DNA of 64,000 nt, from assembly GCF_054482525.1 (NCBI RefSeq), contig NZ_CM137006.1, one strand, 5' to 3'. Shown here one piece after another: positions 45,001 through 48,000 of this stretch. Each line of letters starts with the position of its first letter. Positions within the stretch are counted from its first letter, which is position 1. Position numbers: made by a program.

Positions 45001-48000
45001 CCGCAATCTGGGCCGTCGAAGCTGCGCTCATTGCCGGAATTTTGCTGGTAGTGATTTTTGGATATCGCAATATTCATGGAAGACTGGCAGAAGGAAGCCG
45101 TACAGCGGTAGGCGGCGCAATTCTGGCTGCGATGAACACCGCCTCAGAATATGGCTTCGGTGCGGTTATCGCCGCCCTACCCGGTTTTCTGGTGCTCTCA
45201 AAGGCGCTGGCCGCCATTCCTGATCCATTACTCAACGAAGCCATCAGCATCACCACACTTGCCGGAATTACCGGTTCAGCGTCCGGCGGGATGAGTATTG
45301 CTCTTGCGGCGATGTCCGACACTTTTATTGCCGCTGCGCACGCTGCCAATATTCCACTGGAAGTTTTTCACCGCGTGGCATCTATGGCCAGTGGCGGCAT
45401 GGATACATTGCCCCATAACGGCGCTGTGATCACCCTGCTGGCAATTACTGGGCTGAGTCACCGTCAGGCTTACGGCGGCATCTTCGCAATTACGATCATT
45501 AAAAGTCTGGCCGTGCTGTTTATCATCGGCGTGTACTACACCACCGGCATTGTCTAAGGAAAATCATCATGAATTTACAAGGTAAAACTGCGCTGGTGAC
45601 GGGGTCCACCAGCGGTATCGGACTCGGTATTGCTCAGACACTGGCAAACGCTGGCGCGCAAGTGATCCTCAACGGCTTCGGTGATGTTGACGCGGCAATC
45701 AATGCGGTTTCTCGTATGGGTAAAACGCCTGGCTATCATGAGGCAGACCTCAGCGATGAATCGCAAATTATCAACATGATGGCCTACGCACGGCGGGAAT
45801 TTGGCGGTGTGGACATTCTGGTGAATAACGCCGGGATCCAGTATGTCTCCCCGGTTGAATCTTTCCCTGTAGAAAAATGGAACGCCATTATCGCTATCAA
45901 TCTCTCTTCTGTCTTTCACACCACGCGTCTGGCACTGCCAGAAATGCGCACTCGTAACTGGGGTCGGATCATTAACATTGCCTCTGTGCATGGGCTGGTA
46001 GCGTCGAAAGACAAATCAGCTTATGTTGCGGCAAAACATGGCGTGGTGGGACTCACAAAGACCATTGCTCTGGAAACTGCGCAGACGGGTATTACCTGCA
46101 ACGCGCTCTGCCCTGGCTGGGTGCTGACGCCGCTGGTACAACAGCAGATTGATAAGCGCATTGCGCAAGGCGAAGATGCGGAAAGCGCGCGTGACGCCTT
46201 ACTGGCAGAAAAACAGCCTTCTCGTGAATTTGTGACTCCGCAACAACTGGGTGAACTGGCGCTGTTTCTCTGTTCGGATGCGGCAGCACAAGTGCGTGGG
46301 GTGGCGTGGAATATGGATGGCGGTTGGGTAGCGCAGTAAGTGTTCGCCGGATGACACGTCATCCGGCAATGCTTTACGATTTCAACTGGTAATCAAGCGT
46401 AATTTCAGCTTTCAGTACCTGAGAAACCGGGCATCCTGCTTTTGCTTTCTGGATGATGCCGTCAAAGGTGGAGGTATCAATACCCGGCACCGCAACTTCG
46501 CTCTTCAGTGCGATTTTAGTAATCGCAAAACCGGCATCCACTTTATCCAGCGACACATCGGCGGTGGTATCAATCGATGTTGGCGTGAATCCCGCTTCCC
46601 CCAGCATTAATGAAAGCGCCATTGAGAAACATGCGGCATGCGCTGCGCCAATCAGTTCTTCAGGGTTGGTTCCTTTTTCGCCTTCAAAACGCGTGTTAAA
46701 TCCATACGGCTGTTGGTTCAGCACGCCACTCTCGGTGGATACTGTTCCCTTCCCGCGTTTGATATCGCCTTCCCAGTGTGCCTGACCTTTCTTATGGATT
46801 GTCATTGTTGCTCTCCTGTGGGCTTAAAAAGGAAATTATAGACTACGTGAGAAACAGCACGAGGATAAGCAGGATATTCCGAATAAAATCCGGCGAAAAC
46901 ATTATCTCTGTACTTAAATTAAATTCCCACAATAGATAACAGGAAATATATGACTCAAAAGATATTGTATCAATATTAATCGATTCACACCAATAACAAT
47001 CCCTATGAATATCATAGTGTTAAAATATAAAAATTATCAACCAGGACTAATCTTAACAACGAAGCGGCAAATATTTGCCATGCTGAATGTGCTTTATAAA
47101 TCTGCGATCCGTAGCAGACACCATAAATACACAGACACGGAGAATCACTATGTTTACTTATTATCAGGCAGAAAATTCAACAGCAGAACCCGCTCTGGTT
47201 AATGCCATTGAGCAAGGCCTTCGGGCAGAGCACGGTGTTGTCACTGAAGATGACATTCTCATGGAGCTGACCAAATGGGTGGAAGCTTCTGATAACGACA
47301 TCCTCAGTGATATCTACCAGCAAACGATCAATTATGTGGTCAGTGGCCAGCACCCTACGCTTTAAGGTGCTATGCTTGATCGGCAACCTAATTTAGGGGT
47401 TTAGCACGTGTTTCTTCGCTACGGCGATGTTGTCCTTAAAACTAGCAACAGGATTGAGGAGTTAAAATGAAATCGAACCGTCAGGCACGTCATATTCTTG
47501 GACTGGACCATAAAATTTCTAACCAGCGCAAAATAGTTACCGAAGGTGACAAATCCAGCGTGGTAAATAACCCAACCGGCAGAAAACGCCCCTCTGAAAA
47601 GTAATTCATAACCATCAGTCCTCAATGACGATTAAACACCATTGCCTGCGCAATGGTGTTTTTGTTTTTATCTGCTTTATACTTGGGGCCGACGCCCTGG
47701 CGGTAAAGCAAAGACGATAAAAGCGTGCCAGGGATGGATATTCAAAAAAGAGTGAGTGACATGGAACCAAAAACAAAAAAACAGCGTTCGCTTTATATTC
47801 CTTACGCTGGCCCTGTACTGCTGGAATTTCCGTTGTTGAATAAAGGCAGTGCCTTCAGCATGGAAGAACGCCGTAACTTCAACCTGCTGGGGTTACTGCC
47901 GGAAGTGGTCGAAACCATCGAAGAACAAGCGGAACGAGCATGGATCCAGTATCAGGGATTCAAAACCGAAATCGACAAACACATCTACCTGCGTAACATC

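Follow-up and report, generated by a model that had tools for sequence, protein, structure and literature searches.

A 45-codon sra gene, intact between bdm and maeA, falls below the 60-aa cutoff of the ORF track of an Escherichia coli chromosome

Sra attaches firmly to the ribosome's 30S subunit and was first named S22 (PMC10502375); its older names are RpsV (rpsV), 'S22' and protein D. Expression of sra is predicted to be under the control of RpoS and (p)ppGpp (review PMC10502375), and the amount of the protein goes up on entry into the stationary phase. Quantitative mass spectrometry of stationary-phase ribosomes has revealed that Sra appears on the ribosomes and disappears from them in parallel with RMF, and that before day 6 it is gone from the ribosomes as well as from the proteome (PMC9959377). 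In HipA-induced persisters the synthesis rate of Sra is among the highest, and ampicillin tolerance at 48 h has been reported to be about 1000-fold lower in an sra deletion (preprint 10.1101/2020.09.04.282723). The protein has its origin within the Enterobacteriaceae, probably by de novo birth, and its sequence evolves fast, with 44% substitutions between the Sra proteins of E. coli and Klebsiella (preprint 10.1101/2025.11.04.686544).

The window analysed here is a stretch of 64,000 nucleotides of E. coli chromosome, of which positions 2582-64000 are 99.98% identical to PCN033. A first-pass annotation, made by reading the sequence by hand, had placed a gene for a 45-aa Sra at 47467-47604, and our analysis confirms its coordinates exactly, as well as the claim that it can be read by hand. 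The frame comprises 45 codons and runs from the ATG at 47467-47469 to the TAA at 47602-47604, as read from the sequence and from the ORF listing. The hand translation, whose failure to align with Sra had been named as the outcome that would speak against the gene, is identical to K-12 Sra (b1480, NP_415997.1) in 44 of 45 residues without gaps, A43S being the sole change. Pfam search reveals a match to PF08136 (SRA_like, 'Ribosome hibernation factor SRA') of 106.3 bits against a cutoff of 25 (E 1e-30), which spans residues 1-44 of the protein and positions 1-46 of the 46 in the profile, and the NCBIfam equivalog model for Sra (NF007473) scores 74.5 bits against a cutoff of 35. At the nucleotide level, an 801-nt query around sra is 100% identical to PCN033 and to two other complete E. 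coli genomes, and in all three the region is annotated as bdm, sra and maeA. The product of sra in PCN033, WP_000841556.1, is the same allele as the one found here, and the sra locus query was matched in 5412 of 5426 complete E. coli genomes. This frame is almost certainly the sra gene of E. coli, intact, provided with its own Shine-Dalgarno (SD) sequence and terminator, and orthologous to b1480. As a known gene, with an annotation in practically all genomes of E. coli, it brings nothing novel by its presence here. Its absence from the ORF track, which the first-pass annotation had put down to a cutoff of 60 aa, is due to that length cutoff alone, since a frame of 45 aa is not listed among those of 60 aa or more.

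The signals flanking the frame are listed together with the neighbouring genes in Table 1. The SD sequence is predicted to pair with the 3' end of 16S rRNA with a duplex energy of -8.8 kcal/mol. A clean terminator had also been claimed for the gene, and one is found by the terminator scan and by RNA folding alike. Its hairpin begins 29 nt 3' of the stop codon of sra, and the stem (47634..47661) is a perfect 12 bp with a 4-nt loop, followed by TTGTTTTTAT. The fold has a dG of -19.7 kcal/mol, with a z of -4.1; shuffling the sequence 200 times never gave an equally stable fold (0/200). The stretch that begins at the stop codon of bdm and closes with the terminator T-run shows three substitutions with respect to K-12, one of them located 5' of the SD sequence, one synonymous (in a Val codon) and one causing A43S; the SD sequence and the terminator themselves are unchanged between K-12 and this strain.

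Table 1. Genes, expression signals and short frames in the window that are discussed in the text
Feature	Coordinates	Strand	Evidence and remarks
yneP, 40 aa	16991..17113	-	K-12 b4747 and PCN033 annotation; PF23696 (YneP) 105 bits
yddY, 13 aa	29451..29492	+	translation identical to K-12 b4746; between digH and dosC
osmC	46374..46805	-	gene order as in K-12 and PCN033; divergent from bdm-sra-maeA
bdm, 71 aa	47150..47365	+	PF10684 175 bits; NF008515 175 bits; annotated in PCN033 and K-12
candidate sigma-S/sigma-70 extended -10, TGcTATGCT	47368..47376	+	sequence reading; identical in K-12
antisense TTG-start ORF, 68 aa	47419..47625	-	sole ORF of at least 60 aa over sra
Shine-Dalgarno sequence of sra, GAGGAG	47456..47461	+	sequence reading; 5 nt before the sra ATG
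sra	47467..47604	+	ORF; b1480 98% identity; PF08136 106 bits; NF007473 74.5 bits; WP_000841556.1
intrinsic terminator of sra	47634..47671	+	terminator scan and RNA fold; T-rich tail TTGTTTTTAT
maeA, 565 aa	47761..49458	+	annotated from ATG 47761; K-12/PCN033 order

The DNA flanking sra is collinear with K-12 (97.5% over 4 kb), and the order of the genes around it, osmC (-), bdm, sra, maeA and then adhP, is identical to the K-12 arrangement. The genes bdm and sra are co-oriented, with 101 nt between the end of the former and the start of the latter. The terminator scan found no + strand terminator between the two, so that read-through from bdm into sra is possible. Directly 3' of the stop codon of bdm is the sequence TGcTATGCT, which has a C at position -13. 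An extended -10 element with C at -13 is typical of sigma-S-dependent promoters. A scan for two-hexamer sigma-70 promoters between 46800 and 47800 gave no + strand site. The resemblance of TGcTATGCT to a sigma-S -10 element and the reported RpoS/ppGpp control suggest that it may be an sra-proximal promoter. Transcription of sra would probably combine read-through from bdm with initiation at this putative proximal promoter of the sigma-S type at 47368-47376. A search of the literature on bdm/sra promoters found nothing useful on the transcription of sra. At the gathering threshold, Rfam assigns no RNA family to sra or its vicinity, its only match in the window being the SECIS element of fdnG. 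This element (SECIS_3, 55034..55092, -; 84.3 bits against a gathering score of 63) is situated inside fdnG (52627..55674, -), and the selenocysteine UGA will make any mechanical ORF track show that gene as two ORFs. Mechanical ORFs are over-extended for both neighbours of sra: that of bdm (47087..47365, +) has 92 aa from an ATG at 47087, compared with the annotated 71 aa from the ATG at 47150, and that of maeA has 577 aa from a GTG at 47725, compared with the annotated 565 aa from the ATG at 47761.

Three other parts of the window deserve description. Positions 1..2581 are not collinear with PCN033 and show a 98.9% match to the end of a filamentous (inovirus-type) prophage of APEC E19057, where the prophage is located between hipA and a fimbrial cluster. 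Its genes encode the C-terminus of a Zot-domain protein and a pIV-like secretin (about 324..1588, +), and two further small genes are hypothetical. Among the virion genes of filamentous phages are very short ones; E19057 has an annotated G7P-2 of 28 aa, and the corresponding part lies upstream of the window. The second is a 6.8-kb segment (39559..46351) between ddpF and osmC, which is present in PCN033 and not in K-12, where the interval is 33 bp. It contains genes for a LysR regulator, the subunits A and B of a CoA transferase, a thiolase, a 3-hydroxyacyl-CoA dehydrogenase, a GntP permease and a 3-hydroxybutyrate dehydrogenase, and looks like an accessory island for the use of short-chain or ketone-body-type acids. 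The third, at 57046..60891 (+), holds the remnants yddL, yddK and yddJ in K-12. Here, as in PCN033, it contains a full-length paralog of the OmpC porin family (57046..58146) and a leucine-rich-repeat (LRR) protein of 417 aa (59638..60891), with an LRR pseudogene fragment at 58907..59204. The spacer at 58147..58906 (about 760 nt) shows only weak small ORFs with TTG starts.

Sra encoded in the window is a protein of 45 aa and 5.1 kDa with a calculated pI of 11.0, containing 11 K+R against 4 D+E. Such a composition, with a pI of about 11, fits an electrostatic mode of binding to rRNA. In the likeliest model, the small, basic Sra would bind to the 16S rRNA in the 30S subunits of ribosomes that stand idle. 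We propose, with moderate confidence, that it would act there beside RMF, HPF and RaiA, as an accessory factor in the hibernation or protection of idle 30S/70S particles. The names S22 and rpsV stand for a different view, in which Sra is a genuine structural protein of the ribosome, present in substoichiometric amounts, rather than a hibernation or accessory factor specific to stress. The tight binding to the 30S subunit and the original name S22 are in line with this view, and so is the appreciable copy number of Sra even in the exponential phase in tabulated data (PMC10502375). However, a structural protein is hard to reconcile with a rise in the stationary phase and a departure from both ribosome and proteome within days, alongside RMF (PMC9959377). 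The appearance of Sra only within the Enterobacteriaceae and probably de novo, followed by fast evolution (10.1101/2025.11.04.686544), also argues against a structural role, as does the fact that Sra is dispensable (PMC10502375; preprint 10.1101/2020.09.04.282723). In addition, no deposited ribosome structure contains Sra: sequence search of the PDB with the alleles of the window and of K-12 matched no chain up to E = 10. A structural role is therefore unlikely in our opinion, and the accessory hibernation or protection factor is the reading that we prefer.

The first-pass annotation had also warned that other short genes might have been missed in the window, and had proposed to repeat the scan at 30 aa, requiring an RBS and a terminator. 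Our re-scan covered frames of 30-59 aa whose SD duplex is at least as strong as -4.5 kcal/mol and of which long annotated genes overlap no more than 20%, and looked for a terminator in the next 120 nt. The SD and intergenic filters left nine start/stop combinations, and only one of them, sra, had a terminator. The proposed remedy thus recovered sra, and recovered it uniquely, but it missed two other genes, yneP and yddY. The curated annotation of K-12 holds, in the equivalent region, these two further genes below 60 aa, and both are intact in the window, which bears out the warning. Compared with K-12, yneP carries four substitutions; it shares 35 nt with the 3' end of ydeM, a convergent gene. 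Both YneP and YddY have been detected as proteins by chromosomal epitope tagging (PMC6001520). No terminator-like hairpin is present within 150 nt downstream of either gene. The re-scan misses yddY because it is shorter than 30 aa, and yneP because of its overlap with ydeM and its lack of a terminator. The rule of an RBS plus a terminator is specific, as it returns sra only, but it is insensitive, as it loses yneP and yddY. We hold it for very unlikely that A43S or the 5'/3' UTRs of sra have a strain-specific function and that the window contains further unannotated small genes besides sra, yneP and yddY, for which the spacer at 58.1-58.9 kb and the filamentous-prophage end at 1-2.6 kb would be the candidate places. 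Small genes of that kind might be undetectable by the RBS-plus-terminator rule.

By length alone, an ORF of 45 codons is not beyond chance. Mechanical ORFs of 45-59 aa number 126 in the window and those of 30-44 aa number 269, and this abundance of short ORFs would agree with the sra frame having arisen by chance in the spacer between two genes and encoding nothing. However, chance does not account for curated profile scores far over their cutoffs, nor for 98% identity to a protein known from experiments, and the frame has in addition a strong SD sequence and a dedicated terminator. Moreover, Sra has been quantified by mass spectrometry on ribosomes (PMC9959377, PMC10502375, 10.1101/2020.09.04.282723). 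A chance origin of the frame is ruled out by the profile and ortholog matches, and we give it practically no weight. There is just as little to be said for the antisense ORF of 68 aa being the real gene and sra its shadow: although no other ORF of 60 aa or more covers the interval, this one starts with TTG, matches nothing in Pfam at E <= 1, did not get through the re-scan's joint filter for an SD sequence and intergenic position, is interrupted in K-12 by a stop codon that reduces it to 59 aa, and is annotated neither in PCN033 nor in K-12. Being devoid of a Pfam match and interrupted in K-12, it is itself the shadow ORF. The antisense frames which passed the SD and intergenic filter are separate ones of 41 aa and 39 aa at 47490..47615. 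We rejected both the 68-aa and the 41-aa ORF antisense to sra as genes.

The biological weight of the finding that the frame is sra is small, sra being a textbook-annotated gene of E. coli. The lesson is a methodological one. A cutoff of 60 aa conceals a real and highly expressed gene, displaying instead a spurious ORF on the opposite strand, and it also conceals two validated small genes, yneP and yddY. The warning about missed short genes is justified.

Among the known systems, RMF and HPF/RaiA resemble Sra in being small, basic, induced in the stationary phase and bound to the 30S subunit, and the kinetics of Sra parallel those of RMF. However, they show no sequence relationship with Sra, for which PF08136 is the only Pfam match. 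Sra is not known to bring about 100S dimers. YneP and YddY are like Sra in that they fall below the usual annotation cutoffs and are intact here, but they have no known function, lack a terminator of their own and are unrelated to it in sequence. The closest counterpart is the Sra of K-12, which is of equal length (45 aa), shares the SD sequence and the terminator, and is likewise flanked by bdm upstream and by maeA downstream, and from which the gene of this strain differs by one synonymous change and the conservative A43S near the C-terminus.
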